From: Planctomycetota bacterium
Lineage (GTDB): Bacteria; Planctomycetota; Brocadiia; Brocadiales; Bathyanammoxibiaceae
Direction of reading: 5' to 3'
Assembly: GCA_023261505.1 (NCBI GenBank)
Contig: JAHFOV010000005.1
Span: 6,322-60,691 of the forward strand
Length of the DNA: 54,370 bases
The notes under the pieces were generated by a model. The model was given only the letters and a program-made list of their open reading frames with translations. It made no database searches and was not told the origin of the DNA. Below, piece by piece: positions 3,809 through 53,184 of the stretch (positions are counted from its first letter, which is position 1; each line of letters opens with the position of its first letter). Both the position numbers and the translations under genes were made by a program.

Positions 3809-4101
3809 GAGCGCCTCCTCTATAAAGAGTTCAGGGGTTAGGGGGTAGGGGCTAGGGTCTATAGCACCGAGGTTAGCTTATTTACTAACCGCTAATCCCT
3901 AGGGGTGTTATTGCCAATGTACCACGATAGGGAAAAAAGTAAATAGCACCATTCCAAGTTTCAACAGAATTGACAAAGGGAACTTAACACCTTTACAAAG
4001 GTCTCCCTACATATTCTACACTGATGGGGTCTTTGCTCTTGACTTTTAGATGGATTCCTTTAACATAGAATAACATGTTGAGGGGTTGTTAGAGAAAAGA
4101 A

Positions 4102-4485
4102 ATGGATGCAAAAGAAATAGCAGCATTTAAGAAAGCTCTCCTAAGCTTGCGGGAGAGGCTGATGGGTAATGTAAACTCTCTTCACGGAGAAGCCCTGGGC
4201 AAGAACCGCCAGGATGCAGCAGGGGACCTTTCTAACGTTCCTTTCCACATGGCAGACCTGGGTACTGACAATTATGAGAGGGACATTACGATTCACCTTA
4301 TGGAGAACGAATCAGAGGCTGTAAGGAGCATAGATCAAGCCCTGGCAAAAATAGAACAAGGCACATTTGGTGTTTGTGAAGGATGTACAAAAAAGATTCC
4401 TAAGACTCGTCTTGTCGCTATACCCCATGCCGGATTATGCCTGGAGTGCCAGAAGAAGGAGGAATCAGAGGCTGGCGCTAGCTAA
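4102..4485 (+). CDS. TraR/DksA C4 zinc-finger protein
   Basis: HMADLGTD coiled-coil tip; FGVCEGC...IPKTRL.AIP.A.LCLEC. Confidence 0.88.
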   Translation: MDAKEIAAFKKALLSLRERLMGNVNSLHGEALGKNRQDAAGDLSNVPFHMADLGTDNYERDITIHLMENESEAVRSIDQALAKIEQGTFGVCEGCTKKIPKTRLVAIPHAGLCLECQKKEESEAGAS

Positions 4486-4982
4486 TGTATGGACCTTACG
4501 GTCGTCTTTCCCTCATTGTTATATCAGGCATACTCCTGGACCAATTATCTAAGTGGGCTGCCTTTAAATACCTCGCTGTTTCTCAAGTATTGGAACTCAC
4601 CAGTTTTTTCTCCCTGGTTCTAAGTCGTAACAAGGGCGGTGTTTTTGGCCTAATTCAGGGGGCTAATTATCTTTTCATACTGTTTTCTATACTTGCCCTA
4701 TTATTGCTAGTGTGGGTTTATGAACATTCTGAAAAGGGGCGGCTTAGCACGGACCTGGCTTTGGGGTGCATCTTCGCCGGAGCTGTAGGAAATCTCGTGG
4801 ACAGGGTAGTATATGATTATGTAAGAGATTTCATAGACTTACATGCAGGGCTTAGGCACTGGCCCACCTTCAATCTGGCGGATGTGCTTATCTGCGTGGG
4901 GGTAGGGCTTATAGCCTGGAACAGCCTGGTAGCAGGTCACAAAGAAATTAAAAATTCCAGATTACAGATTACAAGTTTCTAA
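4485..4982 (+). CDS. lspA: Lipoprotein signal peptidase II
   Basis: DQLSK, N.GGVFG, GAVGNLVDR, VRDFID, WPTFNLAD motifs. Confidence 0.95.
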   Translation: MYGPYGRLSLIVISGILLDQLSKWAAFKYLAVSQVLELTSFFSLVLSRNKGGVFGLIQGANYLFILFSILALLLLVWVYEHSEKGRLSTDLALGCIFAGAVGNLVDRVVYDYVRDFIDLHAGLRHWPTFNLADVLICVGVGLIAWNSLVAGHKEIKNSRLQITSF

Positions 4983-5012
4983 TTTGTAATTTGCAATTTG
5001 CAATTTGTAATC
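4950..5012. repeat. 7-nt-period inverted tandem array (ATTACAR/TTTGYAA)
   Basis: CAGATTA CAGATTA CAAG ... AATTTGT AATTTGC AATTTGC AATTTGT, between convergent lspA and ilvE. Confidence 0.8.
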
Positions 5013-5014
5013 CT

Positions 5015-5905
5015 TTATACAGTCGGAGTAGTAACCTCTGCGGTTTCCGGGCTTCTGGTAAGTTCCCTGTAGCTCTTCAGGAGGAATTGGGTTACCTTAC
5101 CAGGTTTTCCATTGCCGATAACCCGTCCGTCTATCTTCACAACAGGGACTATCTCTGCAGCCGTCCCCGTCAGGAAACACTCTTCAGCGGTATAGAGTTC
5201 ATATCTGGTAAAAAGTTCCTCCATAACGTGGATGCCACTCCTTTTTGCCAGTTCTATCACAGTATCCCTGGTGATTCCTTTGAGTATACCAGCATTAACG
5301 GGAGGAGTCATAATCTCGCCATGTTTGACAACAAAGATGTTTTCTCCAGTACACTCTGCTACGTAGCCCTCAGCATTGAGCATAACAGCCTCAGAGGCTC
5401 CGGCAATAAGGCTCTCTATCTTGGCCAGAATGTTATTCATGTAGTTGAGGCATTTTATCCTTGGATTGAGGGCCTCAAAGTGATTGCGGATGGTTCTGAC
5501 GGTAACTGCGTCAATACCTACCTCATACAATCTAGGTGGATACAGTTCAATAAAATCAGTAATAATTATTATAGAAGGTTTCTTGCACTTGGTATGCTCC
5601 AGCCCCAGTTTACCCACACCCCTGGTAACCACTAACCTGATATAAGAGTCTTTCAGATTGTTTACCCTCAGAGTATTGTAAAGAGCCTCCATCATCTCTT
5701 CTTTACTGATAGGAATTTGTAGAGCGATAGCCTTGGCGGATTCATAAAGGCGGTCTATGTGTTCCTGAAGTTTGAAGACTTTACCACCATAAGAGCGTAT
5801 ACCTTCGAAGACTCCATCCCCGTAAAGCAGGCCGTGGTCAAAGACAGAAATCTTTGCCTCCTCCTGAGGGAACAATTCGCCATCAATATAAACTTTAAGA
5901 GACAT
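5015..5905 (-). CDS. ilvE: Branched-chain amino acid aminotransferase
   Basis: [35 protein letters not shown]. Confidence 0.93.
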
Positions 5906-8487: not shown

Positions 8488-8844
8488 ATGCCTGAGAAAA
8501 GTTTTTCCAAGGAAGAGAGGTTGAGGAAGAGAAGGGAATTTGACAGGGTCTTCCAAGGAGGGAAGGTCTTTAAAGGGGCAATCTTCAATGCTTATGCACT
8601 CGGCAATTCTTTGGGACATCCCCGTATCGGAATAGTCGTGGGAAGGAAGTTTGGTGGTGCGGTACAGCGTAACCGCATCAAGCGCCTCCTCCGGGAAGCT
8701 TACAGGTTGAACAAAAACCTCATAGGGGCGGGCCTCGATATAGTGCTTCTCCCCAGGCCAGGCCATGAGGCCAATTTTAAGTTGTTAGAAAAAGAATTCA
8801 AGAATTTAATAGAGAGGATAAAGAGAAGAGACAGTAGACAGTAG
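8488..8844 (+). CDS. rnpA: RNase P protein component
   Basis: RLRKRREF, RIGIVVGRKFGGAVQRNRIKRLLREAYR (RNR motif). Confidence 0.93.
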   Translation: MPEKSFSKEERLRKRREFDRVFQGGKVFKGAIFNAYALGNSLGHPRIGIVVGRKFGGAVQRNRIKRLLREAYRLNKNLIGAGLDIVLLPRPGHEANFKLLEKEFKNLIERIKRRDSRQ

Positions 8845-8939
8845 ACAGCAAGCAGGGAAAAGGTTTTTTTTAACTGTCGGCTGCCTACTTCCTGCTGTGA
8901 TTTTTTTAACTGCCTACTGTCTACTTCCTACTGTCTACT
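8828..8939. repeat. 7-nt-period inverted tandem array (AGACAGT/ACTGTCT)
   Basis: About 3 AGACAGT units, then ACTGYCT-like units; the same family occurs at 9148-9234, 10165-10225 and 27733-27782. Confidence 0.8.
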
Positions 8940-9155
8940 ATGATTAAGGGACTCATAATCATCCTCATAAGGAGGATGTATCAGCGTTTCATAGGACCGC
9001 TGTTGCCCCCTTCTTGCCGCTACTCTCCAAGCTGCTCGGAATATATGGCAGAAGCAATCGAAAAAAAGGGGGTACTGATTGGCAGCATAAAGGGACTTTG
9101 GCGTATCTTGAGGTGCCATCCACTAGGGGGTTCAGGGCACGACCCTGTAGACTGA
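8940..9155 (+). CDS. yidD: Membrane protein insertion efficiency factor
   Basis: [10 protein letters not shown]...[16 protein letters not shown]; follows rnpA. Confidence 0.93.
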
Positions 9156-9236
9156 GTAGAAAGTAGACAGTAGCCAGGGACAAAGTAGAAAATTAATTTT
9201 TCCCTTTATACTGTCTACTGACTACTGTCTACTAAC

Positions 9237-9554
9237 TTACACTTGGTCAGGGGGTGCACTAGAAGGCAATTCTTTATAGAAGCCATTTTCTTTAAGCTTC
9301 TTGTAAATTTCCAGGCCCTTTTCTGAGGGTTTTACCTCGTAGAAGACGGAGCTGTACTCATAATTCTTTTGTCCTTCTATAAGGGAAGAACTAAGTAAGG
9401 CCTCCACATCGTAGAAAGGGCCCCCCAGCCTACCAAAATTACTATACTTCTGGGTAGCCAGGTAATACTCGCATATACTCCCCAGAGTTCTGGCGATGCG
9501 CCTTATAGTCTCAGAATCCTTTATAGCATTCAAAAATTCTTCGTAGGCCTTCAT
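9237..9554 (-). CDS. Hypothetical protein
   Basis: 105-aa ATG ORF filling the gap; no motif recognised. Confidence 0.55.
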   Translation of the reverse strand: MKAYEEFLNAIKDSETIRRIARTLGSICEYYLATQKYSNFGRLGGPFYDVEALLSSSLIEGQKNYEYSSVFYEVKPSEKGLEIYKKLKENGFYKELPSSAPPDQV

Positions 9555-9800: not shown

Positions 9801-10181
9801 GTGTACATAGGAATAGACTTAGTGGAAGTGAAAAGGATAGAAAACCTTTTCTCTCGTTATGAATCTTTTTTGGGACATATTTACACCACTAAAGAAGTAG
9901 AATATTGCCAGAACAAAAAGAACAAGTTCCAGCACTTTGCGGCTAGATTTGCGACAAAAGAGGCTGTTATTAAGGCTTTAGGAGGGGGGGCGGGTTGGAA
10001 GGACATAGAACTTCTTAACGATCCCACTGGTCGCCCTTATCTACAGCTCTATGGAAGGGCCAGGGAGCGCGCGGAGGCGAAGGGGATTGGTAACTACGAA
10101 GTTTCTGTAACGCATACTAAGGATTACGCTGTTGCTCAGGTGCTCCTCATACCCAGAACACTTTCAGTAGGCAGTAAGTAG
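9801..10181 (+). CDS. acpS: Holo-ACP synthase
   Basis: IGIDLVE, AARFATKEAVIKA, GRP, VSVTH motifs. Confidence 0.95.
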   Translation: MYIGIDLVEVKRIENLFSRYESFLGHIYTTKEVEYCQNKKNKFQHFAARFATKEAVIKALGGGAGWKDIELLNDPTGRPYLQLYGRARERAEAKGIGNYEVSVTHTKDYAVAQVLLIPRTLSVGSK

Positions 10182-10243
10182 TAAGCAGTAGGCACTGCCT
10201 ACTCCTTAGTCCCTAGTGCCTAGTAATTTTATTGGGAGATAAG

Positions 10244-16441: not shown

Positions 16442-16446
16442 AAAAG

Positions 16447-16568
16447 TGACTTTAGACTTTGGACTATAGACATTAGACTTTACACTGCGGACTATAGAAC
16501 GTAGACTTTTCTGCTTAAAGTGGAAGAATACCCTGTTTTTAGTCTAAAGTCCAAAGTCTAAAGTCTAA
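16447..16568. repeat. 7-nt-period inverted tandem array (AGACTTT/AAAGTCT)
   Basis: GACTTTA GACTTTG GACTATA GACATTA GACTTT ... AGTCTAA AGTCCAA AGTCTAA AGTCTA, between fadH and fabG. Confidence 0.82.
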
Positions 16569-17332: not shown

Positions 17333-17466
17333 AAAAAATTGCAAATTACAAATTTCAAATTTTGATTTTTGATACGAATTTTTCAACGGCTAGACTGGAG
17401 GGCAGATAATAAAGAATACAAATTACAAATTTGTAATCTATAATTTGTAATCTGCAATATGAATTT

Positions 17467-17824: not shown

Positions 17825-17891
17825 ACAGAATACAGAATTCAGAATATAGAATTTTTAATTCTGACTACTGAATTCTGACTACTGAATTCTG
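17825..17891. repeat. 7-nt-period inverted tandem array (CAGAATW/AATTCTG)
   Basis: CAGAATA CAGAATT CAGAATA TAGAATT ... AATTCTG ACTACTG AATTCTG ACTACTG AATTCTG, between convergent genes. Confidence 0.82.
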
Positions 17892-19006: not shown

Positions 19007-19215
19007 GCCAAAAATATTAACAATAATTGAATACCTGGGCAAGTGACAAGATGAAAACCCAATTACAAATTACAAATTGCAGATTACCAATTATAAATTT
19101 GGAATTTGCAATTCGTCTTTTTCACTGGCTATCCCCCAGCCTTTTTTATATATTATGAGTCCAGCTTTCAGCTAACAGACATCAGCAGTCAGCAGAGTAA
19201 AAATTAACGTCTCTA

Positions 19216-19270
19216 GTAGCCGCAGGCTTTAGCCTGCGTGAAATTTGCGCAACCTAAAGGTTGCGGCTAC
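19216..19270. repeat. REP doublet, family B (GTAGCCGCAGGCTTTAGCCTGCG), empty form
   Basis: Inverted doublet; related copies at 20800-20866 and 27709-27732. Confidence 0.85.
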
Positions 19271-19297
19271 AAATGACTGCTGGTCGGGAGACTACCA

Positions 19298-20788
19298 ATG
19301 ATACAGGGAAAGAACTTTATACGTGGGGAATTTGTTGAAAAAAAGGGAGAGTCCTTTGAGAAGAGGAACCCTGCCAATATTGATGAGCTTTTAGGTGTCT
19401 TTCCTCACTCGGACCAGAACGATATTGAAAAGGCCGTAGAGGCCGCAAGGCTTGCCTATCCGCAGTGGAGGGCACTATCCAGGATAGGCAGGGGGGAGTA
19501 TTTAGACAATCTTGTACAAATCTTAAAAAGAGACAAAGAAGAACTCTCCGTTTTGGTGGCCAAAGAGCAGGGGAAGAATATCACCGAGGCCAGGGCCGAG
19601 GTAACTGAGGGCATACACATGTTCCAGTACCAATTTGGCCTCTCAAGGATGCCCTTTGGAGAGGTTGTCTCTTCCGAGATAGAGGAGAAAGACTCTTTTA
19701 TGCGAAGGAAGCCTAAGGGTGTAATAGGGGTTATCACACCATGGAACTTCCCCTTTGCTATACCCACATGGCTCATAGGCCCCTCCTTACTAGAGGGCAA
19801 TACGGTCGTCTTTAAACCCTCCAAAGAGACCCCCTGTGTCGCGCAGAAACTTGTGGAAGCCTTTAAGGAGGTAGGAATACCTCCTGGGGTGATAAATATG
19901 CTCCACGGCAGCGGAGAAAGGGTGGGCACGCTCTTAGTAAGACATCCTAAGATAGTGGTAGTCCTTTTTACAGGCTCTGCAGAGGTAGGACAGCAGATAA
20001 GAAGGGTCTCGGCTGAAATCCCGGATAAGATGTGTGCCTGTGAGATGGGGGGAAAGAACGCCGTTATAGTGCTGGACGATGCCGATATGGAGCTGGCCGT
20101 CAATGCCTCAATTATCAGCGCCTTTAAAACTTCGGGACAGCGCTGTACTGCGGCCAGCCGCCTGATTGTCCACAAGGACGTTGTAAAAGAATTCCAGAAG
20201 CGCTTCGTAGAGGTAGCTAAAAGGATAACAATTGGTGATACCCTGGACCCGGATAATTTTGCAGGCCCCGTGATAAACGAGACCCAGATGAATAAAATCC
20301 TTCGGTATAATGAACTGGCAAAAGAAGAGGGAGCAGAGGTACTTCTGGATGGTGGGAGGTTAAAAGGCCCACAGTACGCTAAAGGCTATTTTCTATCTCC
20401 TTTTGTTTACAGAATGGAACCTAATCCAAAGAGCGTAGTGCTGAAAGAAGAGGTCTTCGGCCCCCACGTGGCCATTATCCCGGTGAAAGACCTGGAGCAG
20501 GCACTAGAGGTACATAATGATACAGAGTACGGCTTGGTAGTCTCAGTCATTACAGAAGACTGCCGAAAGGCCAGGGAAATCAGAGAGAGGTGCGAATATG
20601 GCCTGGGCTATGTGAACTTGCCTACCATAGGGGCAGAGGTCCATCTGCCCTTCGGTGGCGTGAAGAAGAGTGGAACGGGGCTTCCCTCCGCTAGCACGCT
20701 CATTGATGTAGTGACCCATCGTACTGCCTGGACGGTAAACCATGCCAGGGAAATAAAAATGGCCCAGGGACTAAAGGTCAAACTTTAA
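19298..20788 (+). CDS. Aldehyde dehydrogenase family protein
   Basis: ITPWNFP, FTGS, EMGGKN, GQRCTA, EEVFGP, PFGG.K.SG. Confidence 0.93.
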   Translation: MIQGKNFIRGEFVEKKGESFEKRNPANIDELLGVFPHSDQNDIEKAVEAARLAYPQWRALSRIGRGEYLDNLVQILKRDKEELSVLVAKEQGKNITEARAEVTEGIHMFQYQFGLSRMPFGEVVSSEIEEKDSFMRRKPKGVIGVITPWNFPFAIPTWLIGPSLLEGNTVVFKPSKETPCVAQKLVEAFKEVGIPPGVINMLHGSGERVGTLLVRHPKIVVVLFTGSAEVGQQIRRVSAEIPDKMCACEMGGKNAVIVLDDADMELAVNASIISAFKTSGQRCTAASRLIVHKDVVKEFQKRFVEVAKRITIGDTLDPDNFAGPVINETQMNKILRYNELAKEEGAEVLLDGGRLKGPQYAKGYFLSPFVYRMEPNPKSVVLKEEVFGPHVAIIPVKDLEQALEVHNDTEYGLVVSVITEDCRKAREIRERCEYGLGYVNLPTIGAEVHLPFGGVKKSGTGLPSASTLIDVVTHRTAWTVNHAREIKMAQGLKVKL

Positions 20789-20799
20789 GTAGCCTTTAA

Positions 20800-20866
20800 G
20801 TAGCCGCAACCTTTAGGTTGCGATATTTTGCGTGATTATCTTTCGCAGGCTAAAGCCTGCGGCTAC
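20800..20866. repeat. REP doublet, family B, empty form
   Basis: GTAGCCGCAACCTTTAGGTTGCG ... CGCAGGCTAAAGCCTGCGGCTAC. Confidence 0.85.
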
Positions 20867-20932
20867 AAGTTTCTGCCATAGTAATATTTGCGTTAGGCAC
20901 GGCCTGCGTCAATATATAGGAGAATATACTTT

Positions 20933-22066: not shown

Positions 22067-23308
22067 ATGGCTCTTATTGTCCAAAAATTTGGTGGCACCT
22101 CGGTAGCCGATGCGCAGAAAATAAAAAGGGCTGCTCAGAGGGTTGCTCAGGCCTACAAAGAGGGCAACCAGGTGGTGGTAGTAGTGTCTGCCATGGGGCG
22201 TACCACTGATGAGCTCTTCGACCTGGCCCATCAGATTACTGAAAGACCTCCGGCAAGGGAGATGGATATGCTGGCCTCTACGGGAGAGCAGATTTCCATT
22301 GCCCTAATGGCCATGGCCATTCATGCTTTAGGATACGAGGCCATATCTTTCACCGGAGGCCAGGTAGGCATTATTACAGACAGTCGCCACACCAAGGCCA
22401 GAATTCTAAAGATAGATACAAAAAGGATACTTCAAGAATTGGATAGCGGGCGGATAGTTGTGGTGGCTGGCTACCAAGGGGTGGATGCCTACAATAACAT
22501 CACCACCCTGGGCCGTGGAGGTTCAGACGCTACGGCCGTGGCCCTTGCGGCTAAGCTTAAGGCAGACATGTGCGACATCTTTACAGACGTAAATGGTATC
22601 TATACAGCAGACCCAAGGATAGTGCCTGAAGCCAGCAAATTGGAAAAGATTTCTTACGATGAACTGCTGGAGCTTGCCAGCCTGGGAGCCCAGGTGATGC
22701 AAGCCAGGAGCATAGAGTTTGCCAAAAAGTATAATGTACCTCTCAGGGTGAGACCCAGTTATAATGAATCTTTGGGAACCCTTGTTTGTCAGGAGGCTAA
22801 GGAGATGGAAGATATTGTAGTAAGCGGTGCGGCAGTAACCAAGGACGAGGCCAAATTAACCATTAGGGGAGTGCCAGATAGGCCAGGCGTAGCAGCAAGG
22901 CTTTTCGGGGAAATTGCACGTCATAATATAAATGTAGATATAATTATACAAAACATAGGTTCTCATGGAATGACAGATGTCACCTTCACTGTCCCCAAAG
23001 ACGACCTCCCGGAAGCCGTCGATGTCGCTAAAAGGATGAAGGAGGAACTCAAGGCCCAGGAGGTCAGCGCAGACAGCCACATAGCTAAACTCTCTGTGGT
23101 AGGAATCGGCATGAGGAGCCACTGTGGAGTAGCAGAGAAGATGTTCAGCGCGTTGGCCCAGGAAGGGATAAACATACAGATGATAAGTACCTCCGAAATA
23201 AAGATTTCATGTGTCATTGATGAGGCTCAGGCAGAGCGGGCCCTGAAGGCCGTTCACAAGGCCTTTGAACTCCACAAAGTGGGGGAAAGAACAGGGGTTA
23301 GGGGGTAG
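22067..23308 (+). CDS. lysC: Aspartate kinase
   Basis: VQKFGGTSV, TTLGRGGSD, two ACT domains, STSEIKIS. Confidence 0.96.
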   Translation: MALIVQKFGGTSVADAQKIKRAAQRVAQAYKEGNQVVVVVSAMGRTTDELFDLAHQITERPPAREMDMLASTGEQISIALMAMAIHALGYEAISFTGGQVGIITDSRHTKARILKIDTKRILQELDSGRIVVVAGYQGVDAYNNITTLGRGGSDATAVALAAKLKADMCDIFTDVNGIYTADPRIVPEASKLEKISYDELLELASLGAQVMQARSIEFAKKYNVPLRVRPSYNESLGTLVCQEAKEMEDIVVSGAAVTKDEAKLTIRGVPDRPGVAARLFGEIARHNINVDIIIQNIGSHGMTDVTFTVPKDDLPEAVDVAKRMKEELKAQEVSADSHIAKLSVVGIGMRSHCGVAEKMFSALAQEGINIQMISTSEIKISCVIDEAQAERALKAVHKAFELHKVGERTGVRG

Positions 23309-23405
23309 GGACTAGTGAAAATAAAGAATACAGAATTCAGTAGTCAGAATTCAGAATATTCTCTATTCTGTATTCTGAATTCTAGTTCCTGACCCCTAAC
23401 CCCTA
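23292..23405. repeat. Nested 7-nt arrays: GGGGTTA arms enclosing a CAGAATT hairpin
   Basis: CAGGGGT TAGGGGG TAGGGAC TAG [AGAATAC AGAATTC ... TATTCTG TATTCTG AATTC] TAGTTCC TGACCCC TAACCCC TA. Confidence 0.8.
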
Positions 23406-23415
23406 TTAATATGCC

Positions 23416-27671: not shown

Positions 27672-29044
27672 CGCAGTTCTTGCCCCTTCTCTTTAGTGCC
27701 TACTACTTACGCAGGCTGAAGCCTGCGGCTACTTACTGCTTACTGCTTACTGCCTACTGTCTACTGTCTACTGTCTACTGCTTTGCAGAGGAGGCCCTTA
27801 AGATATGCCCAAAGTGCTTCAAGAGCTACCCTGCCGAGAGCAACTTCTGCTCGGTAGATGGAGAGAAGCTGATTACTGCAGTCTCTAAACTAGTGTGTCC
27901 CAAATGTGGCAGGAGGGGCGAAACTGGAGAGAAATTCTGCCCACAGGACGGAGAAAAACTGGTACCAGAGGGAGAAGAAGGGATAGAAAAAAAGAGGCTG
28001 GAGGCCTTGAAACATTATGAGGAAGGAAACCGCCTGTCAGACCAAAAGGAATATGACAAAGCCCTGGAAGAGTATTTAGCGGCAGAAAGGCTCTACGAGG
28101 AGCTGCCTGAACTCCATTACAACATCGGTTGGCTATACAGCAAGCTAGGCGCTGCAGAAGAGGCAATAAAACACATGAAGAGATATATAGCCCTTAAACC
28201 CCAGGCTGCGGATATAAACGATGCACTTGTTTATATTAATCTCCTCCAGAAGGGCATTGACGAGGCACAAAAGAGAAGTACTACTCTTCAGGACAGAAAC
28301 GAGGCCATGGAAAATGCGCTGGCAAAAAACAGAGAAAAATGGGATATGGTTCTCGTGGGAGCCGGGGAATTTATTATGGGCTCAGATGACCAGAGAGACG
28401 ATTGTTACCCAAACCATAATGTGTATCTTCCCGCCTTTTACATTGACCGTTACGAGGTAACCAACGCCCAGTACTATGAATTCCTTGAGTATATAAAAAA
28501 GACAGGAGACCACAGCAAATGCCATAGGGATGAACCTCCTGGAAAAGACCACACGCCCAGGAACTGGGAAGACAGCTATTATGACAACCCAGATTTCCCT
28601 GTTACAAGGATAGACTGGTACGATGCCTACGCTTACGCCGCCTGGGCAGGCAAGCGCCTTCCCACAGAGGCTGAGTGGGAAAAGGCAGCCAGGGGGCCAA
28701 ATGGTAACCGCTTCCCCTGGGGAAACGAGTGGAATCCCGAAAACTGTAATGTGGGGGGGGAGCAGAAGCCTGTGGGGAGTTATCCGCAAGGAGTCAGCCC
28801 CTATGGATGCCATGACATGGCAGGAAGTGTGGCAGAATGGGTGGCCGATTGGTATGACCCTGAATACTATCAAAGAAGTCACTCCAATAACCCCCAGGGC
28901 CCAGAAAAAGGGGTAAAAAAGGTCATTAGAGGTGGCTCGCGTTTCGGCAGGGGCTTCCTGCTCCGCTCCACCGCGCGCAAGTGCGAGGCCCCTAACATTC
29001 ATAACCAGGCCGTAGGCTTCCGCTGTGTCAAAAAACCTTCCTAA
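27668..29044 (+). CDS. Exported protein: double zinc ribbon + TPR + FGE-sulfatase (SUMF1) domain
   Basis: CPKC...FC..DG twice, TPR, YEVTNAQY, RLPTEAEWEKAARG, DMAGSVAEW, GFRC. Confidence 0.88.
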   Translation: MTQFLPLLFSAYYLRRLKPAATYCLLLTAYCLLSTVYCFAEEALKICPKCFKSYPAESNFCSVDGEKLITAVSKLVCPKCGRRGETGEKFCPQDGEKLVPEGEEGIEKKRLEALKHYEEGNRLSDQKEYDKALEEYLAAERLYEELPELHYNIGWLYSKLGAAEEAIKHMKRYIALKPQAADINDALVYINLLQKGIDEAQKRSTTLQDRNEAMENALAKNREKWDMVLVGAGEFIMGSDDQRDDCYPNHNVYLPAFYIDRYEVTNAQYYEFLEYIKKTGDHSKCHRDEPPGKDHTPRNWEDSYYDNPDFPVTRIDWYDAYAYAAWAGKRLPTEAEWEKAARGPNGNRFPWGNEWNPENCNVGGEQKPVGSYPQGVSPYGCHDMAGSVAEWVADWYDPEYYQRSHSNNPQGPEKGVKKVIRGGSRFGRGFLLRSTARKCEAPNIHNQAVGFRCVKKPS

Positions 29045-31447: not shown

Positions 31448-32737
31448 ATGTTTATCAGGATGGTAAAGACAACGACGGGGTCACAGAAAAAGACCCACTG
31501 CTATCTCAGGGTAGTGGAGAGTTATCGGTCTAACGGCAAGGTAAAGCAGAGGGTCTTGTGGAACATGGGTAAGTTGGAGAGGGTACGCCCTGGCCTTAAT
31601 GGTTTGTTAAAGTCTCTAATTAGATTCTCCGGGGAACAATTCTTAAACGTAAGAGAGATAAAAGATAGACGAGTAAGTGAATATGGAAATATCCTCCTAC
31701 TAAAATATCTATGGGAAGGCTCGGGATTTAGAAAAATCCTGGAGTCCAACTTAGGGAAGGATGCAGACTGTATAATGGCTATGGTTTTTTATAGGTTATG
31801 CCAGCCAGCCACATACGCCTGCGGTGCTACCGCCCTGCTAAGCTGGTTAAAGAGGATTAATCTGCCTGAAGCGGAGAGGCTGGCTAGGTTAGGCCAGGGG
31901 AGGTTGAGGAAGAGACTATTAAACGGCATAAACACTTTGGGCAGGCTGGAATGGTCAGAAAGGCAAAAATCCGTGTCAGGTCATACTTTGAGAAAATTAC
32001 CCGCAGCAAAAAGAAGCTTCATTATAGAGATAGGTCCTTTATCTTATAGAGGAAAAAGGTATAGAAACAATTACCTGGCAATCCTTCCACTGGGCAGTAA
32101 TAACTTTACACGGTTCAGGGTTCATACCAGGAAAGAATTCGTGGCAATGCTCCAGAAATTAAAGAGTACCAAGGGGATTCTCATAGTAAGGTACTCCACA
32201 CTAGGAAGGAAAGGAGTAGCCTTTCTGGACAAGGAATCCGTTCCTTATCTGGCCTTTTTTAAAAAGCTTCAGCCAACTCGCCGTAGGCCCAGGAGGAGGC
32301 ACCTTACCATTGGGTACGGCAATCAAAAAGTTCAGCTAAGGACAAATATTGCAAAGAGTACCAGCCTCTACCAGGCAAAAAGGGCCTTTAAAGGCCTCCT
32401 GGAAGCAGAGTCCGCCCTTGGTCGGCCAGCTTTACCCCCTTTTATGCCACCAGGGAAGGCTTATTTGAAGGGTTACATACTAGTGCTCATGCTGGCGTAT
32501 CTAATAGAAAAGCTCCTACAGAAAGGACTTGCCAAGCATGGCATTCGATTTCAACCGAAAGAAGCCCTGGATACGCTAAAAGAGGTCAGGATAGTAAGTA
32601 ATCTCTTAGCAGGTAGAAGGTGGGATTATCTAACTGGCATGACGCGTGAGCGGTGTACCTTGCTAAAAATCTTCGGAATAAAGAGGCCCTCTCTCAATCT
32701 CAAAGCCCAAATGACAAATGCAACTTTTGGAGTTTGA
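31448..32737 (+). CDS. IS1634-family transposase-derived protein with no recognisable DDE core
   Basis: N-terminus MFIR...YLRVVESYR.NGKVKQRVL.N.G and C-terminus KGYILVLMLAYLIEKLL match IS1634 transposase ends; acidic catalytic motifs not recognisable. Confidence 0.65.
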   Translation: MFIRMVKTTTGSQKKTHCYLRVVESYRSNGKVKQRVLWNMGKLERVRPGLNGLLKSLIRFSGEQFLNVREIKDRRVSEYGNILLLKYLWEGSGFRKILESNLGKDADCIMAMVFYRLCQPATYACGATALLSWLKRINLPEAERLARLGQGRLRKRLLNGINTLGRLEWSERQKSVSGHTLRKLPAAKRSFIIEIGPLSYRGKRYRNNYLAILPLGSNNFTRFRVHTRKEFVAMLQKLKSTKGILIVRYSTLGRKGVAFLDKESVPYLAFFKKLQPTRRRPRRRHLTIGYGNQKVQLRTNIAKSTSLYQAKRAFKGLLEAESALGRPALPPFMPPGKAYLKGYILVLMLAYLIEKLLQKGLAKHGIRFQPKEALDTLKEVRIVSNLLAGRRWDYLTGMTRERCTLLKIFGIKRPSLNLKAQMTNATFGV

Positions 32738-32758
32738 GTTTTATAATTTGAATTTTCT

Positions 32759-34774: not shown

Positions 34775-34837
34775 CGCCAAAGCGCAAGGCGCCACAGATG
34801 CGTGGTACGCGACTTTAGTGTCGCCCTAGAGAAACCA

Positions 34838-34952: not shown

Positions 34953-34963
34953 ATTACACAACT

Positions 34964-35202
34964 TCCCCCGCTCCTGGCAGTTCGTAAGGGTGAGATTAGG
35001 TGGAAGCTGACGTCATACCTCCACATTTATACGCGGTAGGCGGGTAACCTCCGCAAATTTTGAAAGAGCTTTAAGGCCTTACACCTTTTACAGCCTTAAG
35101 ATGGTGGTTCACCCACAGGCCTTTGATAACGAGCATCCCCAAGATGTCTCCTTATCTAGCTCAACGGCACCCTTCACGAATCACTGCCAGGGAGCAAGGG
35201 GA
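34964..35202 (-). ncRNA. ssrS: 6S RNA-like ncRNA (longer than usual, about 240 nt)
   Basis: About 28-bp interrupted closing stem (CCCTTGCTCCCTGGCAGTGATTCGTGAAGGGTG / CACCCTTACGAACTGCCAGGAGCGGGGGA); 5' arm resembles 6S; TATAAT on the minus strand at 35207-35212, just upstream. Confidence 0.5.
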
Positions 35203-35416
35203 TAAAATTATACTATAAGTTTACCACCTTTTTTTCAAAATGGCAACCTGGATGAAAAACTTTTTTGTAAACCTTTGGGCTAACTACACTTATGTAAACA
35301 AATAAACAGTTAACTACATCAAGCTTAGGGTATGGTGGAGGCTTTGCACCTGTACATTTGTAGTCAAAAATTAAAATGAGACCGCGCTGCAAAAGCAGCA
35401 AAATTGCATGTTTAAT

Positions 35417-35557
35417 GTAGCCGCACCCTTTTATGGGTGCGTATAACGCAGGCTAAAGTTCGCCATAGGCGAATCTGTTCGCCACAAAAATTGGCGAATC
35501 CGAAATAAGCGAATCCGCCTATCTTTTTGGTGGACCTCAGGCATGACCTGCGGCTAC
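35417..35557. repeat. Family B REP doublet carrying a nested 88-bp composite insert (35459-35546)
   Basis: Removing the insert restores CGCAGGCTAAAG^CCTGCGGCTAC as at 20844-20866. Confidence 0.88.
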
Positions 35558-35594
35558 CCTTAAATTTGTGATTAGACTACTTTTTCAGAAGTCT

Positions 35595-36467
35595 CTACTT
35601 CTTGAAAAAATCCCTCCCCAGGGCTGTCCTTGAGTAGTAATAGAGGTACTGCTGGGCATAACCTCCATAGTTGCCAAAGTAGTCCCTAGCGAAGGAGTTA
35701 ATCAATTTAGGTGAAACTTTTTGGCCCTTAAAATAAAAGGTGCGTAATGCCCTCTCTATCCATCTATCTACAGGAAAGGCCTCTACAAAGCCCAGGGAAA
35801 ATAGGAGTACACAATCCGCCACCTTTTCTCCTACCCCTGGCAGTTCCATTAATCTCCCCTTCGCCTCAGTATAAGGCAATGACTTCAAGGATTCTAAAAA
35901 ACGCCTGTCCGCAGTCCGAGAAATCTCGCAAATGTAATTAGACCTAAAGCCCAGGCCTGTTTCTTTGAGCAGGGGCACGGCATGCCGCGCCGCTACGTTT
36001 CTTACATCGTCAGGTTCCGGCAGGCTGTACCCCTTGACCTCGCCCAGGCGAACTTCTCTTCCGAATGCCCTGGCCAGGCCATCCAGACATCTCTGTATCT
36101 TTGGGATGTTAGAGGCAATAGAACAGATATAGGATAAGAGACAGTCCCAGGGGTCTTGTCTTATAAGCCTGAGGCCGTAGTACAAGTGGAAGGCCTTCTT
36201 AGTGTACCTGTCCTGTGGTATCTCAGCTAATATATCTTTTAGAGCGGTATCAAGAGAAAAAAAATGTCTAATAAAATCCTTATCTGCCCCTGAAAACTCC
36301 AGTCGGTCGCTATCCTGTCTTACCCTAAAAAATTTATTTCCTGAATGGATGTAGTACCAATCCCCCACCCTTTTGTATCTGAAGAACTGTCCACACTCCA
36401 TTGTGTGGATTAGATGAAAATCTCTCACCTTAACAGAAGATGTCTGTTCAATAGATTTTTTAATCAA
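35595..36467 (-). CDS. 8-oxoguanine DNA glycosylase (OGG1-like HhH-GPD)
   Basis: MECGQFFR, LRLIRQDPW, GLGFR, LPGVGEKVADC, FPVD, GYAQQYLY. Confidence 0.9.
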   Translation of the reverse strand: MIKKSIEQTSSVKVRDFHLIHTMECGQFFRYKRVGDWYYIHSGNKFFRVRQDSDRLEFSGADKDFIRHFFSLDTALKDILAEIPQDRYTKKAFHLYYGLRLIRQDPWDCLLSYICSIASNIPKIQRCLDGLARAFGREVRLGEVKGYSLPEPDDVRNVAARHAVPLLKETGLGFRSNYICEISRTADRRFLESLKSLPYTEAKGRLMELPGVGEKVADCVLLFSLGFVEAFPVDRWIERALRTFYFKGQKVSPKLINSFARDYFGNYGGYAQQYLYYYSRTALGRDFFKK

Positions 36468-36814
36468 CGTCTTTTGATAGTGGAGAGGTTTACTGAATTT
36501 TTATACTTGCAAGTCTTTCTAAAAATACGATTTAAGTTTTCTTAGGATAGAAACATTAAATGTATTACAAGCCTGTGTTAAGTAAAACTAATTTCGCATA
36601 AAAAATCTTACGAAAACTTACGCTCTCCAATCTTATTGATAGAGTGAGTCTTATAAATATTATACAGTTTATAATTAAAGGTCAGTTGAAAATTCTAATA
36701 CCTTTTGTTTTGACATTCCATAATTTTCTAGTAACATGCGTATCGAAAACTTGCGAAGCCTACCGTAGAGGATACGATGCCCGCAGAGAGTTTTCTAACT
36801 TTTAGGGTGGCGGT

Positions 36815-38200
36815 TTGGGACATAGTAACAATGAACTCTGGGCCAAAGTCTTAGAAAATATCCAGAATCAGGTTGGCCCTTTTACCTTTAATCTCTGGTT
36901 CAGGAACACAGAACTCCTTTCCTGTTGCAGTGGCCGCTGCGAGATAGGCGTACCTAACTCCTTCACAGGTGTGTGGCTCCAGAGACATTTCCTGTCCGTA
37001 ATACAAGAAAAGCTTGCTAATGCCATAGGAAAGGGTGTGGAAGTTGGGTTCTCCATTAACGGTAATAATCCCGAACTTTCTCAGGCAGTTTGCAATGTTC
37101 CTAGTGAGGCAGCAAAGGAAGAATCCCAGGTAAACAATAAAGGCATAAAGGACCAGGCCCCTCTCCCGCTACCTTCGAGGGTCTATAGGCTTGAGGATTT
37201 CATAGTAGGGCCTTCTAACCAGCTCGCCTATGTTTCAGCACTGGAGATTCTAAAGGATTCCAGGCCTTCTAATTTCAACTCCCTGTTCATATACGGCCCG
37301 GTTGGACTAGGGAAGACCCATATCTTACAAGGCATATGGAATTTCTTTAAGGAAGGGGGTCAGCCCCTAAAAGCAGTATACATGCCGGCTGAAGACTGGA
37401 CTAATGAGTTTATTCAAGCCCTTAAGGGTGGAAAGGTTGAAGACTTCAGGCGTAAGTATAGAAAAGTGGATGTCTTGCTTATGGATGATGTACATTTCCT
37501 CTCCAGTAAAGAGGGCATTCAGGAGGAGCTTACCCATACTATAAACTCCTTGGCCCATGCCTCCAAGAGGATTATTTTTGCCAGTGACGCCCATCCAAAG
37601 CTAATAAGGGAACTTAAAGAGAGTCTGGCGAATCGCATGATGGGCGGAATGATTGCGGAGATACATCCACCAGATTTTAGTACTACCTTTGCCATTGTTA
37701 AAGCAAAAGTTGAAAAGCTTGGACACAATTTTTCTGAAGAAGTATTGCAATGCATGGCTGAAGGTCTTAAAGGACGCAGTATAAGAGGGATTGAGAGCAC
37801 GCTGACCGCAATACTTGCCCATACAGTTACCTATAAAAAAGAAGTAGATGTAAAGCTTGTTAAGGAAGTTCTGACCCAGTTATTTGGCCAGAAGAGGAGA
37901 CAGGTGAGCCTGGAAGATATAGGGCTAGTAATTAGGAACCACTTTAATCTTACCGCCCACGAATTACATTCCCCAGAAAGAAGGCGCTCCCGCCTCCTTC
38001 CCAGGCGGCTTTGTTGTTATTTTGCCAGGATGCTGACTAATTATTCACATGAAGAAATAGGTCGCCATTTCGGTAACAAAAAGCACACTTTTTGTGTAAC
38101 TTCTATAGCGAAAATGAAAATAAGGCTTGAAAAAGATGTTGAATTCCTTAAACTTGTGGAAAAACTGCAGGGAGAAATAACGCGCAGGACTTTTGTCTAG
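36815..38200 (+). CDS. dnaA: DnaA-family replication initiator (divergent paralogue)
   Basis: Domain I (FNLWF...VPNSF), F.VGPSN.LA, GPVGLGKTH, LMDDVHFL, atypical domain IV. Confidence 0.85.
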   Translation: MGHSNNELWAKVLENIQNQVGPFTFNLWFRNTELLSCCSGRCEIGVPNSFTGVWLQRHFLSVIQEKLANAIGKGVEVGFSINGNNPELSQAVCNVPSEAAKEESQVNNKGIKDQAPLPLPSRVYRLEDFIVGPSNQLAYVSALEILKDSRPSNFNSLFIYGPVGLGKTHILQGIWNFFKEGGQPLKAVYMPAEDWTNEFIQALKGGKVEDFRRKYRKVDVLLMDDVHFLSSKEGIQEELTHTINSLAHASKRIIFASDAHPKLIRELKESLANRMMGGMIAEIHPPDFSTTFAIVKAKVEKLGHNFSEEVLQCMAEGLKGRSIRGIESTLTAILAHTVTYKKEVDVKLVKEVLTQLFGQKRRQVSLEDIGLVIRNHFNLTAHELHSPERRRSRLLPRRLCCYFARMLTNYSHEEIGRHFGNKKHTFCVTSIAKMKIRLEKDVEFLKLVEKLQGEITRRTFV

Positions 38201-48514: not shown

Positions 48515-49507
48515 TTGTCTGGAGGCAGTGTGAAGAGGACAAGGAGCGCCAGGATAAAGGAAGTAGTGCTTGACTACGTAATAGTTATTGCCCTTGTAGT
48601 AATGTCAATATACTATGCCATAGATGCCCGTGGCTTTGCAACGCTGGCGAATTTCACAAATATCCTCAATCAGAATTCCGTTTATATTATCCTGGCAGTG
48701 GGGATGACGCTGGTTATCCTCACAGGCGGGATAGACCTCTCCGTTGGTTCCATACTGGCCTTGAGCGCAGTGGTCTGTGCAGATGTGGCCAAGCGTATGG
48801 AGGTAGTTGTCGGGAGTGGCCCTGCCGCCTGGGGTATTATTCCCATCGCCTGGCTGGTGGCCCTGGCGATAGGCTCAGCCCTGGGGGCCTTTAATGGCGT
48901 CATGATTATTACCTTTAGGATTCCACCCTTTATAGCCACACTGGCCATGATGACAATGGCCCGAGGGGCTGCAAATATTTATTGCGATGCAAGGCCCATA
49001 GGTAATCTCCCGGATGAGTTTAAGCTTATTGGCACCGGATCCCTGGGCACCATACCTATACCCGTCTTTATCATGGCCATCCTTTCTGCCACTATTTTTG
49101 TAATTGCCCGTTATACAGTTTTTGGGCGTTACGTTTATGCTGTGGGAGGCAATGAGGAAGCTGCCAGGTTATCAGGGATAAATGTCAAAGAGGTGAAGTT
49201 CTGGGTTTATGTGGTGAGTGGGATGTTCTCGGGTATATGCGGGATAATCCTGGCCAGTCGTCTGGGGTCAGGGGACCCGAAACTGGGTTTCATGTATGAA
49301 CTAATTGCTATTGCTGCCGTGGTGTTGGGAGGTACAAGCCTCATGGGAGGGAGGGGATCCGTGATAGGTACTGTCTTTGGAGCCCTTTTTATCGGCGTGC
49401 TAGAAAATGGACTACTACTCAAAGGCGTTCCCACCTTTTATCAATGGGTGGTAAAGGGGCTAGTGATATTAGTGGCGGTGATAGTAGACCAGTTGAAGAA
49501 GCGTTAA
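48515..49507 (+). CDS. Sugar ABC transporter permease (RbsC-like)
   Basis: GMTLVILTGGIDLSVGS, IPPFIATL, AVGGNEEAARLSGI, YELIAIAAVVLGGTSL.GG.G. Confidence 0.9.
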   Translation: MSGGSVKRTRSARIKEVVLDYVIVIALVVMSIYYAIDARGFATLANFTNILNQNSVYIILAVGMTLVILTGGIDLSVGSILALSAVVCADVAKRMEVVVGSGPAAWGIIPIAWLVALAIGSALGAFNGVMIITFRIPPFIATLAMMTMARGAANIYCDARPIGNLPDEFKLIGTGSLGTIPIPVFIMAILSATIFVIARYTVFGRYVYAVGGNEEAARLSGINVKEVKFWVYVVSGMFSGICGIILASRLGSGDPKLGFMYELIAIAAVVLGGTSLMGGRGSVIGTVFGALFIGVLENGLLLKGVPTFYQWVVKGLVILVAVIVDQLKKR

Positions 49508-49613
49508 ATAAAATCTAATTTCAAATTACAGATTACAAATTTAAGATATTAAAGAAGAGATGACATGAACAAAAAGGAAAATATTGTTTATTTTTTGACC
49601 AGGGGCGCCGCTT

Positions 49614-50402: not shown

Positions 50403-50417
50403 GCCTGATTTTTCAGC

Positions 50418-51143: not shown

Positions 51144-51238
51144 AAAATTGTCTCTTAATTTAAAAAGGATTTTATTAAATCATGAAGGCCTTGGTATGTA
51201 ATCTATCCTGATGTTTATTTTGCTATTTATTAAAAAAA

Positions 51239-52606
51239 CTACTCTGTTGCCCCTACTTTATAGCCCTTTCTTCCGAGGAGGGCGAAGGTATTGACCTTTC
51301 CAGCCTCCACTCCAGGCTGGTCAAAGGGATTTATACCGAAGAGTTTTCCAGCCAGGGCCGTTTGAACCTGGAACATGTAGAGGAGTCCCCCTACATGGAA
51401 GGCCGTGATTTCAGGGAGGTATATAGTGTAGTTAGGGCGTCCTGCCTGGGTAAGGGCTAGTTCTGTCCCTCTACGTTCTGCCTCCATAAGCCCTGCCAGG
51501 GTATGTCCAGAAAGATATTCAAAATCCGTTTCAGGGGATAGGGGGATTTTCACCCTTGATTTAAACTTATCGACTGCCAGGAAGGTTATGACCTTATCAA
51601 AAGGTCCTTCCATGTAGAGCTGGAGCTGAGAGTGCTGGTCGGTGGGTCCCACAGCTTTTACGGGTGTGGGACCGCAGTGAATAATTTTACCTTTAACGGA
51701 GAACTTCTTGCCCAGGCTCTCAGCCCAGAGCTGGCAAAACCATTCTCCAACAGCCTTCAGGGCCGCTGAGTAGGGCATTAGCACCGTAATATGTTTACCT
51801 TTTTTGTAGCTTAAGTATTGAAGGCAGGCCCCAAGCACGGCAGGATTTTCTTCTACAGTCTCTTTTTGGCACTGGAGATCCATCTCCGCCGCGCCTGCAA
51901 GGAGTGCATTAATATCGATACCGCTCACGGCCGCAGAAAGTAGACCCACAGGGCTAAGAACTGAATATCTACCACCTACCCCTTTAGGAATACACAGCTT
52001 TTCATAACCCTCCTTTGCTGCCAGCCTTCTCAAGGCCCCGTCTTCAGGGTCTGTAGTGGTTATGATATGCTTTGTGTAGGCGTTCCCCAGGCTTTTCTTC
52101 AGCATCTCCTTGACTATTAAAAACTGGGCCACGGTCTCCACTGTGGCACCAGATTTAGAAATAACATTGAAGACAGTTTGCTTCAGGTCAAGGGTCTCAA
52201 GCAACCCGGCAAAAAGGTCTGGGTCTATAGTGTCTATAACATGAATTCTAGGCGTAGGGGCGTATCGCAATACGCCCCTACTTTTCCCCTCCTGGCTGTG
52301 ATAGGGTGGGTTAAGAGCCTGATGCAGGGCTATATTACCGAGCGCAGAACCCCCAATACCCAGCACTACAAAATCTGTCATCCAAGACCTTAATTCATCG
52401 GCAAGTTTTTTTATCTTTTCAGCAACTTCCTTTTGATAAGGCAGGTCCAGGAATTGATGCTGTCCGTTAGACCTCTCCTCCTTCAGCTCCTGGAGGTAGC
52501 GTAGGGCCTGCCTTCCTGGCTTTTGCAACTCAGCGGGGGTCGCGCCGTGCCTGCCCACGGTATCCCTGAGCATATTTCTAAAATCAAGCCGTAGTATTTC
52601 TTTCAT
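51239..52606 (-). CDS. pgi: Glucose-6-phosphate isomerase
   Basis: GIGGSALG, ISKSG.T.ET, GGRYSVLS, QLWAESLGK, DQHSQLQLY, PFDQPGVE.GK. ATG 52606; the ORF-track extension upstream is repeat-derived. Confidence 0.95.
   Translation of the reverse strand: MKEILRLDFRNMLRDTVGRHGATPAELQKPGRQALRYLQELKEERSNGQHQFLDLPYQKEVAEKIKKLADELRSWMTDFVVLGIGGSALGNIALHQALNPPYHSQEGKSRGVLRYAPTPRIHVIDTIDPDLFAGLLETLDLKQTVFNVISKSGATVETVAQFLIVKEMLKKSLGNAYTKHIITTTDPEDGALRRLAAKEGYEKLCIPKGVGGRYSVLSPVGLLSAAVSGIDINALLAGAAEMDLQCQKETVEENPAVLGACLQYLSYKKGKHITVLMPYSAALKAVGEWFCQLWAESLGKKFSVKGKIIHCGPTPVKAVGPTDQHSQLQLYMEGPFDKVITFLAVDKFKSRVKIPLSPETDFEYLSGHTLAGLMEAERRGTELALTQAGRPNYTIYLPEITAFHVGGLLYMFQVQTALAGKLFGINPFDQPGVEAGKVNTFALLGRKGYKVGATE
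52254..52281. repeat. GTAG-type REP, in frame in pgi
   Basis: GTAGGGGCGTATCGCAATACGCCCCTAC; encodes RGVLRYAPT. Confidence 0.82.
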
Positions 52607-52617
52607 ATCAGAAAAGC

Positions 52618-52671
52618 GTAGCCGCAGGTCATGCCAGAGGCAGATTCGCCTATGGCGAACTTTAGCCTGCG
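52618..52671. repeat. Family B REP with a 31-bp insert (intermediate nesting state)
   Basis: GTAGCCGCAGG[TCATGCCAGAGGCAGATTCGCCTATGGCGAA]CTTTAGCCTGCG; degenerate REPs follow to about 52780. Confidence 0.88.
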
Positions 52672-53184
52672 TGGTGCAATAATGCAGCAAACCTAAAGGT
52701 TCGCCCTACCTTGCAAAATGTAGGGCAAGGCTTTACTTTTGACCGTAAAACTGTAGCCGAAAGCTTTAGTCCGCGTGCGCCAAGAAAAGAAGATAATGAA
52801 AGGAGGGCTAATAGTCAAGAGGCTGAAGCATAAACTCGAAAGATAACCATGATATCTTACCTAAAGTGTTACCCATGTCCATATACTCCACAAAATACCA
52901 ACATTTTTTTCTTGGCTTTCTAGAGAAAAGTTGTATATATACAGCTTTAGAGTGCCCTCTTAGCACGCTTTGGACAGACCTACTAGGAAAAGATAGGGGG
53001 CGTTAGCCAGGCGTTTAACGGCGTCCGCCTCATACGGATGGCGGGCCGATTAGTGGGATAAAGCAGAAATCCCGCACCAGAAGTCTAGAGGTGGGGTATG
53101 GGGGTTATTTTGATTAACCTCTAGTCCCTATCCCCTAATCTCTGGCCCCTTACTCAATTGTTTATTAACCTGGAGGTCTGTCTT

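Follow-up and report, generated by a model that had tools for sequence, protein, structure and literature searches.

Heptamer arrays behind the genes of an anammox-order bacterium and the arm order of their hairpins

Tandem repeats of seven-base units, about half of them paired with an inverted run, are dispersed through the genome of a bacterium of the anammox order (Planctomycetota; Brocadiales). We describe them here from a 54,370-nucleotide stretch of its DNA (contig JAHFOV010000005.1, positions 6,322 to 60,691; "the window" below), from the whole genome (2.5 Mb, 147 contigs, 96.5% complete; G000) and from relatives (G001 to G017). The arrays exceed chance, lie preferentially behind stop codons, differ in length by two units between co-occurring strains, occur in some genera of one family and are lacking in others, and follow a near-absolute rule of arm order when they form hairpins. 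The host is an anammox-order bacterium with a small genome: the hydrazine synthase alpha gene (HZS_alpha) is present in G000 and in all four relatives tested, and the window carries lolD, lpxB and genes for an HdrD/DsrK-like protein and acyl-CoA dehydrogenases. A filamentous cyanobacterium, the group from which a preliminary description of the window cited heptamer repeats, fails as host on these genes and on the cyanobacterial octamer GCGATCGC, which occurs three times.

Period-7 arrays at the ends of genes

Reading of the sequence and Tandem Repeats Finder (TRF), which returned 45 rows for the window (20 of period 7, seven of period 14 and one of period 28), confirmed period-7 arrays at every place named in the preliminary description. 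Sixteen loci were scored by folding, as minimum free energy (MFE, in kcal/mol) and z score; ten had a z of -3 or below, and the lowest MFE was -55 kcal/mol. This lowest value belongs to a nested hairpin at 23292..23410, in which arms of GGGGTTA-type and TAACCCC-type units enclose a CAGAATN/ATTCTGN pair (MFE -55.2, z -11.0) and the lysC stop (23306-23308) lies in the outer arm. The rnpA stop (8842-8844) likewise lies inside the hairpin at 8829..8939, where an AGACAGT arm is followed by an A-run/T-run centre and an ACTGCCT/ACTGTCT arm with an internal 36-base duplication (MFE -41.2, z -5.6), so that arrays do sit at gene ends and do supply stop codons, as had been proposed. Similarly, the hairpin at 10165..10224, with a CAGTAAG/CAGTAGG arm and then CCTACTC units grading into CCTAGTC, contains the acpS stop (10179-10181) and leaves 8 bases to the following start codon (MFE -25.6, z -4.1), and the one at 4954..5011, with ATTACAG then TTTGTAA units (TRF rows 4954-4973 and 4976-5011), overlaps the ends of convergent lspA (4485-4982, +) and an ilvE-like gene (5015-5905, -; MFE -17.5, z -4.9).

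Four more hairpins have TRF rows and MFE values. They lie in the gap between an OYE-type oxidoreductase gene and fabG (16443..16568; GACTTTA arm then AGTCTAA arm; MFE -47.7, z -8.2), at 9155..9237 (AGTAGAN arm then TACTGNC arm; MFE -35.0, z -7.2), in a convergent gap at 17825..17891 (CAGAATN arm, then alternating AATTCTG/ACTACTG units with a 14-base period; MFE -21.0, z -5.5) and in a divergent gap at 19061..19115 (AATTACA arm then AATTTGN arm; MFE -15.7, z -5.6). A short hairpin at 17417..17460, with TACAAAT then TTGTAAT/CTATAAT units, was found both by TRF and by reading (z -3.0). Two others were read from the sequence: a G-rich then C-rich pair of arms in a divergent gap at 53085..53140 (MFE -24.7 on the + strand and -14.6 on the - strand, z -4.9), and a weak periodic hairpin, A-rich then T-rich, at 32696..32750 (MFE -12.1, z -2.1), at the end of an open reading frame (ORF, 31448-32737). 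The N-terminal part of that ORF weakly resembles IS1634-family transposases (E 7.6e-11, below the cut-off).

The remaining loci of the window do not fold appreciably. A single G-rich arm of about four AGGGGNT-type units (3833..3861; TRF 4.1 copies) occupies the divergent gap between an acyl-CoA dehydrogenase gene (2651-3808, -) and a dksA-like gene (4102, +) and forms no hairpin (z +0.8). Single arms also lie directly behind the fabG stop (17336..17362; A-rich, AAATTNC units, TRF and sequence read, z -1.0) and behind a sugar ABC permease gene (48515-49507), where 3.6 AATTACA units span 49517..49547 (TRF, z +0.2). Behind valS, at 27734..27781, stands a single pyrimidine-rich arm of 6.9 TACTGNN units, which adjoins half of a REP-like (repetitive extragenic palindromic) motif and has no fold (TRF, z +1.3). 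Finally, a weak degenerate array of CAGCNNN units at 19160..19200 was read from the sequence and has no TRF row (z 0.0). Rfam and tRNA scans of the window returned no matches.

How far do these arrays exceed chance? Among arrays of at least three copies, TRF found 255 of period 7 in the genome against 32 of period 6 and 29 of period 8, with 7, 5 and 6 at these three periods in a third-order Markov simulation. At four copies or more the figures are 155, 7 and 13, and the simulation yielded none of period 7; perfect period-7 repeats of at least 2.5 copies number 49 in the genome and 4 in the simulation. Intergenic DNA shows maxima of base autocorrelation at lags of 7, 14 and 21 bases; the value is 0.279 for the first of these, and lags of 5, 6 and 8 give 0.266-0.271. 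Coding DNA has a period of 3 alone. The earlier claim of a period of seven conserved across many different units therefore stands, with a clear genome-wide excess over periods of six and eight.

The arrays occupy particular gaps. The crude ORF calls used here (longest non-overlapping ORFs of at least 70 codons) cover 88% of the genome and leave 71% of the array bases non-coding. Co-directional gaps hold 130 of the 205 loci (1676 gaps, 0.75 loci per kb) and convergent gaps 36 (298 gaps, 0.9 per kb), against 13 in divergent gaps (292 gaps, 0.19 per kb); 16 loci lie inside ORFs and 10 at contig ends. Arrays in co-directional gaps lie a median of 6 bases behind the upstream stop and 48 bases from the next start, and at 52 of the 130 loci the stop is touched or overlapped. 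In array-free relatives the same genes are tightly packed: the oxidoreductase/fabG gap measures 17 bases in G004 versus 147 here, where the hairpin at 16443-16568 fills it. Two genomes of a sister genus have the same unit family in this gap; in a third of the same genus the gap is free of arrays. For annotation it matters that the arrays overlap or supply stop codons and enlarge gaps between genes that are tightly packed in relatives.

Inverted pairing was scored as a 14-base reverse-complement double unit with at most two mismatches within 120 bases. Such a partner is present for 129 of 271 non-overlapping arrays genome-wide, against 1, 13 and 12 for the reversed unit, the complemented unit and the flanks of another array. 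The preliminary description had called inversion usual; pairing is indeed far above these controls, but it concerns about half of the arrays. The long hairpins at gene ends that it envisaged are borne out by the folds and the stop distances, the strongest locus of the genome reaching -101 kcal/mol. Shuffling the order of units in the 3' arm leaves the fold unweakened (median z -0.12, n=45 loci, p = 0.66), and a hairpin pairs about equally well in any register. Because the order of units in the 3' arm does not mirror that of the 5' arm and shuffling is harmless, the two arms must evolve independently. We also considered fold-back copying and unit-by-unit compensation between the arms; the shuffle test at the 45 loci shows neither.

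Two further features of the window deserve mention. A 1.3-kb stretch without ORFs of 100 codons or more (within 34262-36814) adjoins ogg and lies upstream of dnaA (36815-38200), with the maximum of the cumulative GC skew near 40 kb; the origin of replication possibly lies in this region. At 19215-19271 lies a REP-like doublet of two inverted hairpins, each starting with GTAG. Dozens of copies of about 90% identity are found in G000, G001, G005, G007, G008, G010, G012 and G017, the element occupies the same gaps in relatives, and many metagenome contigs end or join there. Contigs of three runs (window 19236-19269 and 20796-20867) join about 19239 to about 20844 and so skip an aldehyde dehydrogenase gene (19298-20788). 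These joins are probably other copies of the repeat, which flanks the gene on both sides, and may alternatively represent a deletion variant.

Length change, unit vocabulary and distribution

DNA nearly identical to the window is present in groundwater metagenome runs, and near-identical contigs from two of these were compared with it over 20 kb, leaving out the multi-copy REP-like element. Four indels separate the co-occurring strains. One is a single-base deletion outside arrays; the other three lie in arrays and measure 14 bases each, that is two units, and affect one arm only (+14 behind 8828, -14 at 17857, +14 behind 19095). Arrays therefore change length in place and in register, which lends direct support to the fixed-register slippage put forward at the outset. 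Recent copy-and-paste is not evident, since a second near-identical copy (at least 85% identity over 80% of the locus) exists for 7 of 205 loci, all of them near contig ends.

The units themselves form a connected vocabulary. Within an array, 81% of the units are distinct, and in several arrays one family grades into another, as at 10165-10224. Single substitutions link 72 of the 74 unit classes, comprising 276 of 278 arrays, into one network of 144 edges, against 63 +/- 6 in composition-matched shuffles. The five units first named do differ mutually, but families that had seemed unrelated are thus mostly parts of a single substitution network. G-rich families are common (16, 12 and 11 arrays) and a minority among the 74 classes.

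Is the trait a property of the whole family? Period-7 arrays of at least three copies number 78 in 200 kb of G008 and 10 in 51 kb of G001, both of genus g2, and 12 in 65 kb of G007 (g8). G004 (g5), G002 (g3) and G016, which belongs to another family, have one each in 200 kb, and none were found in 95 kb of G005 (g6), 86 kb of G006 (g7) or 15 kb of G003 (g4), the last too little to judge. The contigs of G005, G006, G007 and G001 had been picked from earlier hits, which biases their densities, in G007 in favour of arrays. Within one family, then, some genera have the trait and others lack it. Accordingly, a general property of bacterial polymerases is not the whole cause, and a cause specific to some lineages is needed; with sister genera that have and lack the trait, it can be sought by comparison of gene content.

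The array-rich genomes have much vocabulary in common. Of the 43 unit classes of G008, 32 also occur in G000, where chance gives 2.75 with uniform classes and 4.3 +/- 1.9 (maximum 11) with composition-matched shuffles. The loci coincide less: at 31 loci of G008 with syntenic flanks in G000, an array is also present there in 11 and lacking in 20, and the units agree to within one substitution in 5 of the 11 co-occupied gaps. In the reverse direction, G008 has an array for 10 of 14 syntenic loci of G000. An array-rich ancestor with heavier loss in G000 and turnover of units inside loci would fit these counts. In one gap the sequence is wholly different between the close relatives G008 and G001, perhaps through replacement or insertion.

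Arm order and the origin of the arrays

A run followed by its reverse complement reads alike from either strand, so the order of the arms is a property of the element itself. In G000 this order is uniform within the family at 102 of 102 hairpin loci (33 families), and the first arm is the purine-rich one (92:7). The first arm has more A than T in 87:10 and more G than C in 65:33. The same order prevails in G008 (26:4) and, in an unrelated phylum, in a Pyrinomonadaceae genome (Acidobacteriota; 22:1 overall), where contigs not chosen by pattern (170 kb) hold 38 period-7 arrays, 21 of them with an inverted partner and with an order of 14:1, and pattern-chosen contigs give 8:0 with one tie. A cross-phylum scan with four CAGTANN units, one genome per species, yielded at least 124 loci; among the matches listed (124) the inverted arm is downstream in 24, upstream in none and absent in 100, and they come from many phyla, including Acidobacteriota, Chloroflexota, Bacteroidota, Cyanobacteria, Planctomycetota and Nitrospirota. 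Single arms show a related bias: in co-directional gaps of G000 their purine-rich strand is the sense strand in 32:13, with the array behind valS (27734-27781) as an exception.

Two cyanobacteria depart from this pattern. Microcoleus and Tychonema (200 kb each) are rich in period-7 arrays (45 and 75), yet their hairpin loci are few (7 from 50 arrays and 9 from 94 arrays) and without preferred order (4:3 and 5:4), and the sense bias over all their arrays is 21:16 and 26:22. In the whole genomes of both (G033, Microcoleus; G032, Tychonema) a backwards CAGTANN control is several-fold commoner than the motif (987/794 versus 153/111 in G032), other heptamer families dominate, and arrays reach about 18 copies.

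Simpler accounts of the order were rejected. It is not a general property of hairpins in the genome, as non-array intergenic hairpins are purine-first in a ratio of only 132:86 and pyrimidine-first forms are abundant among them; nor does the near arm serve to close all reading frames with stop codons, which are as frequent in the second arm (41 versus 42). As a separate observation, a small dispersed hairpin that is pyrimidine-first (CCCCTCC, a short loop, GGAGGGG, with C-rich and G-rich flanks) lies inside the loops of heptamer hairpins in G000 (C17:19656-19789, C85:159-312, C1:4092-5396, C63:1574).

What could produce and shape such arrays? They are heptamer simple-sequence arrays of a kind seen elsewhere, and in our view the probable account, if by no means a sure one, joins slippage in place with tolerance as REP-like RNA hairpins behind genes. 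They grow and shrink by misalignment in a 7-base register, each arm varying independently, and their units drift by point mutation through one heptamer network. Transcribed with the upstream gene, they would be tolerated mainly as a purine-rich arm, a loop and a pyrimidine-rich arm, a form that may yield a long, register-tolerant RNA hairpin from either reading direction and that could act, like a REP element, as a barrier at a 3' end or between cistrons. The arm-order rule points to the RNA level, because only the order of synthesis tells the two mirror forms apart. A terminator-like logic is one possible reading of this order: the flanks of 65 hairpin loci have AAAA upstream in 15 (downstream in 4) and TTTT downstream in 18 (upstream in 4).

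A more specific form of this explanation, which we regard as doubtful though worth stating, is a grammar imposed by Rho: an array in a transcribed, untranslated gap would persist only where its pyrimidine-rich strand never appears as single-stranded RNA. The purine-first order would keep that RNA paired and so might avoid unwanted loading of Rho in bacteria that contain it. As one part of this joint and tentative reading, purine-first hairpins, safe in both directions, and purine-sense single arms would be selected, and Rho-less cyanobacteria would retain arrays that are unpaired, whichever their orientation. All five genomes of the family tested have Rho, the Pyrinomonadaceae genome has fragments of it, and no match above the cut-off was found in the three cyanobacteria tested. 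Avoidance of Rho fits the sense bias of single arms and the missing rule in Rho-less cyanobacteria, and would account for both. If true, it would show why an entire class of intergenic repeats in bacteria has the form it has and, together with the contrast between sister genera, offer a way to find what starts arrays.

Several points weigh against slippage with tolerance at the RNA level and against its Rho form. Slippage alone does not explain array-free sister genera that have MutS, MutL and Rho (all three present in 5/5 genomes compared), nor 32 of 43 classes in common when 11 of 31 syntenic gaps are co-occupied, and the gap that is wholly different between G008 and G001 looks like replacement rather than slippage. 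Phylogeny confounds the Rho contrast, which sets three Rho-containing lineages against two cyanobacteria, and cyanobacterial units have a smaller skew between purines and pyrimidines. A over T separates the arms better than G over C, which fits the logic of A-tract/U-tract terminators at least as well as the preference of Rho for C. In addition, the hairpin of the sense strand is only weakly stabler than that of the antisense strand (29:13, Wilcoxon p = 0.07); we had considered this G-U asymmetry as proof of selection at the RNA level and dropped it as too weak.

Alternatively, a dedicated generator, an enzyme confined to array-rich lineages such as a short-template polymerase, a primase-polymerase or a nuclease-ligase, might write the arrays from a limited vocabulary. 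The on/off trait within one family, the vocabulary sharing beyond shuffled expectation and the patchy spread across phyla would suit it. However, length changes occur in place, and with an array in G008 too for 10 of 14 syntenic G000 loci, much of the common vocabulary can be put down to shared descent followed by loss. Nor did any of nine protein families tried supply a candidate gene. The reverse transcriptase family RVT_1, whose co-occurrence had been suggested, has no matches in five of five array-rich genomes of genera g1 and g2 (G000, G001, G008, G010, G012). Co-occurrence of an HUH gene failed as well: Y1_Tnp (RAYT/IS200) does not track the trait, as clear matches are common in array-free relatives and the G000 match is below the cut-off (E 9.2e-4). 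Loss of SbcD and XseA (exonuclease VII large subunit) was rejected as the determinant: both are present in array-free G002 and were not found in G000, G001, G004 and G008 (93-98% complete), of which G004 is array-free. At most, this loss is permissive for long palindromes and slippage. On balance we hold a dedicated generator to be improbable.

Among the repair genes of these genomes, RecJ was not found in G008 only, and the mutS match of g2 is split into two in-frame parts separated by about 80 bases (G008:C8:5807-8485, G001:C37:2970-5462), which suggests an in-frame insertion. GATC occurs 1759 times in the 2.5 Mb of G000, far below the expectation from composition.

It also seems improbable that the arrays are mobile hairpin elements, that is, ready-made heptamer hairpins copied into new gaps and often into older loops, like REPINs or miniature inverted-repeat transposable elements. 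This would accommodate the nested hairpins of different families at window 23292-23410, C99:20000-20183 and C54:14806-14976, the G008/G001 gap noted above, and the coexisting GTAG-headed REP-like element, whose stem base resembles a CAGTAGG unit; since inversion leaves the purine-first order unchanged, every copy would inherit it. Yet near-identical second copies are confined to the few loci near contig ends, no terminal repeats or target duplications were noticed at the arrays, and the Y1 transposase match of G000 is sub-threshold. The apexes, which we considered as a possible conserved core marking a mobile element, are rich in A-runs and T-runs and are not conserved in sequence within families.

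Least probable of all, and in our view very unlikely, are arrays of binding sites or of regulatory structures, in which the period would fit a multimeric RNA- or DNA-binding protein or the G-rich arms would act as regulatory G-quadruplexes. A period-specific binding protein had been proposed, but HutP, a hexamer that reads triplets at 7-base spacing and the one nameable RNA binder of period 7, was not found. Moreover, 74 classes with mostly distinct units in each array offer little to a sequence-specific binder, the arrays lie behind stops and not in promoter gaps, and most families are unable to form quadruplexes, even though G-rich ones are common here. In favour, heptamer repeats have been proposed as protein sites in Beggiatoaceae and Nostoc (PMC4679880; bioRxiv 10.1101/2022.06.06.494920), and G-rich heptamers are reported to form quadruplexes in vitro (PMC4692102). 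Seeding of the arrays from REP stems can be set aside, as CAGTAGG-like stem bases occur in few REP hairpins and most arrays have no REP core.

Comparison with known heptamer and palindromic repeats

Heptamer arrays have been known since 1990 and are used for strain typing. Those of filamentous cyanobacteria, the short tandemly repeated repetitive (STRR) sequences, were reportedly described by Mazel et al. in that year. The present arrays resemble STRR as tandem 7-base units of several families dispersed in a genome. They differ in their anammox-order host and in that about half are inverted with a fixed arm order, against 10-14% without polarity in the two cyanobacteria sampled. Among the best-ranked matches of a literature search combining anammox with heptamer repeats, no anammox report was found.

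REP elements are near-identical copies of a palindrome tied to a RAYT transposase. Like these, the related bacterial interspersed mosaic elements and REPINs, the heptamer hairpins are imperfect palindromes in gaps behind genes, including gaps inside operons. Unlike REPs and REPINs, they are individually unique and periodic, near-identical copies are rare, and no RAYT tracks them.

STRR are described as dispersed intergenic tandem heptamers of several families, some forming hairpins between genes, for which stabilization or termination of transcripts has been suggested and whose function is given as unknown (PMC2670836). Heptanucleotides are described as the commonest class of long simple sequence repeats (SSR) in scattered bacteria, with polymerase slippage over a 7-base contact as the proposed cause (Mrazek et al. 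2007 via PMC4679880). Our arrays share with these long SSR, defined by units of 5-11 bases, the runs beyond chance, at least four copies in 155 cases against none simulated; the contrast between sister genera argues that the proposed polymerase property is insufficient. The ideas of terminators or stabilizers and of slippage are thus already in print (PMC2670836; Mrazek et al. 2007 via PMC4679880).

In the TAACTGA direct repeats of marine Beggiatoaceae, some Cyanobacteria and Bacteroidetes, 169 direct sets stand against one indirect set and the repeats lie just upstream of starts, according to MacGregor 2015 (PMC4679880). They too are intergenic and patchy across phyla, and strains there differ in 7-base increments; in contrast, the present arrays have many units, are inverted in half of the cases and lie behind stops.

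There is also a resemblance to the G-rich heptamers of Xanthomonas and Nostoc PCC 7120. Rehm et al. 2015 (PMC4692102) found these over-represented in non-coding DNA and between aligned ORFs, rare between divergent ORFs, and located on the sense strand no more than 50 bases from the stop. For two Xanthomonas genomes they reported 70 and 75 inverted pairs, whose orientation they called "convergent". Our arrays match that description in their preference of gap type (0.75-0.9 versus 0.19 per kb), stop proximity (median 6 bases) and purine-first order. Because the Xanthomonas pairs show the same order, the arm-order layout has a precedent in print. That work dwells on one G-rich family and on quadruplexes, whereas here the classes number 74 and the order rule extends to A-rich families.

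New relative to these systems are the host lineage, the contrast between sister genera, the 14-base polymorphisms, the conserved vocabulary, and the arm-order rule across families and phyla. The polymorphisms are direct evidence of length steps of two units among co-occurring strains. The near-absolute arm order, repeated in an unrelated phylum, matching that of Xanthomonas and not seen in two Rho-less cyanobacteria, leads to a simple and testable hypothesis.

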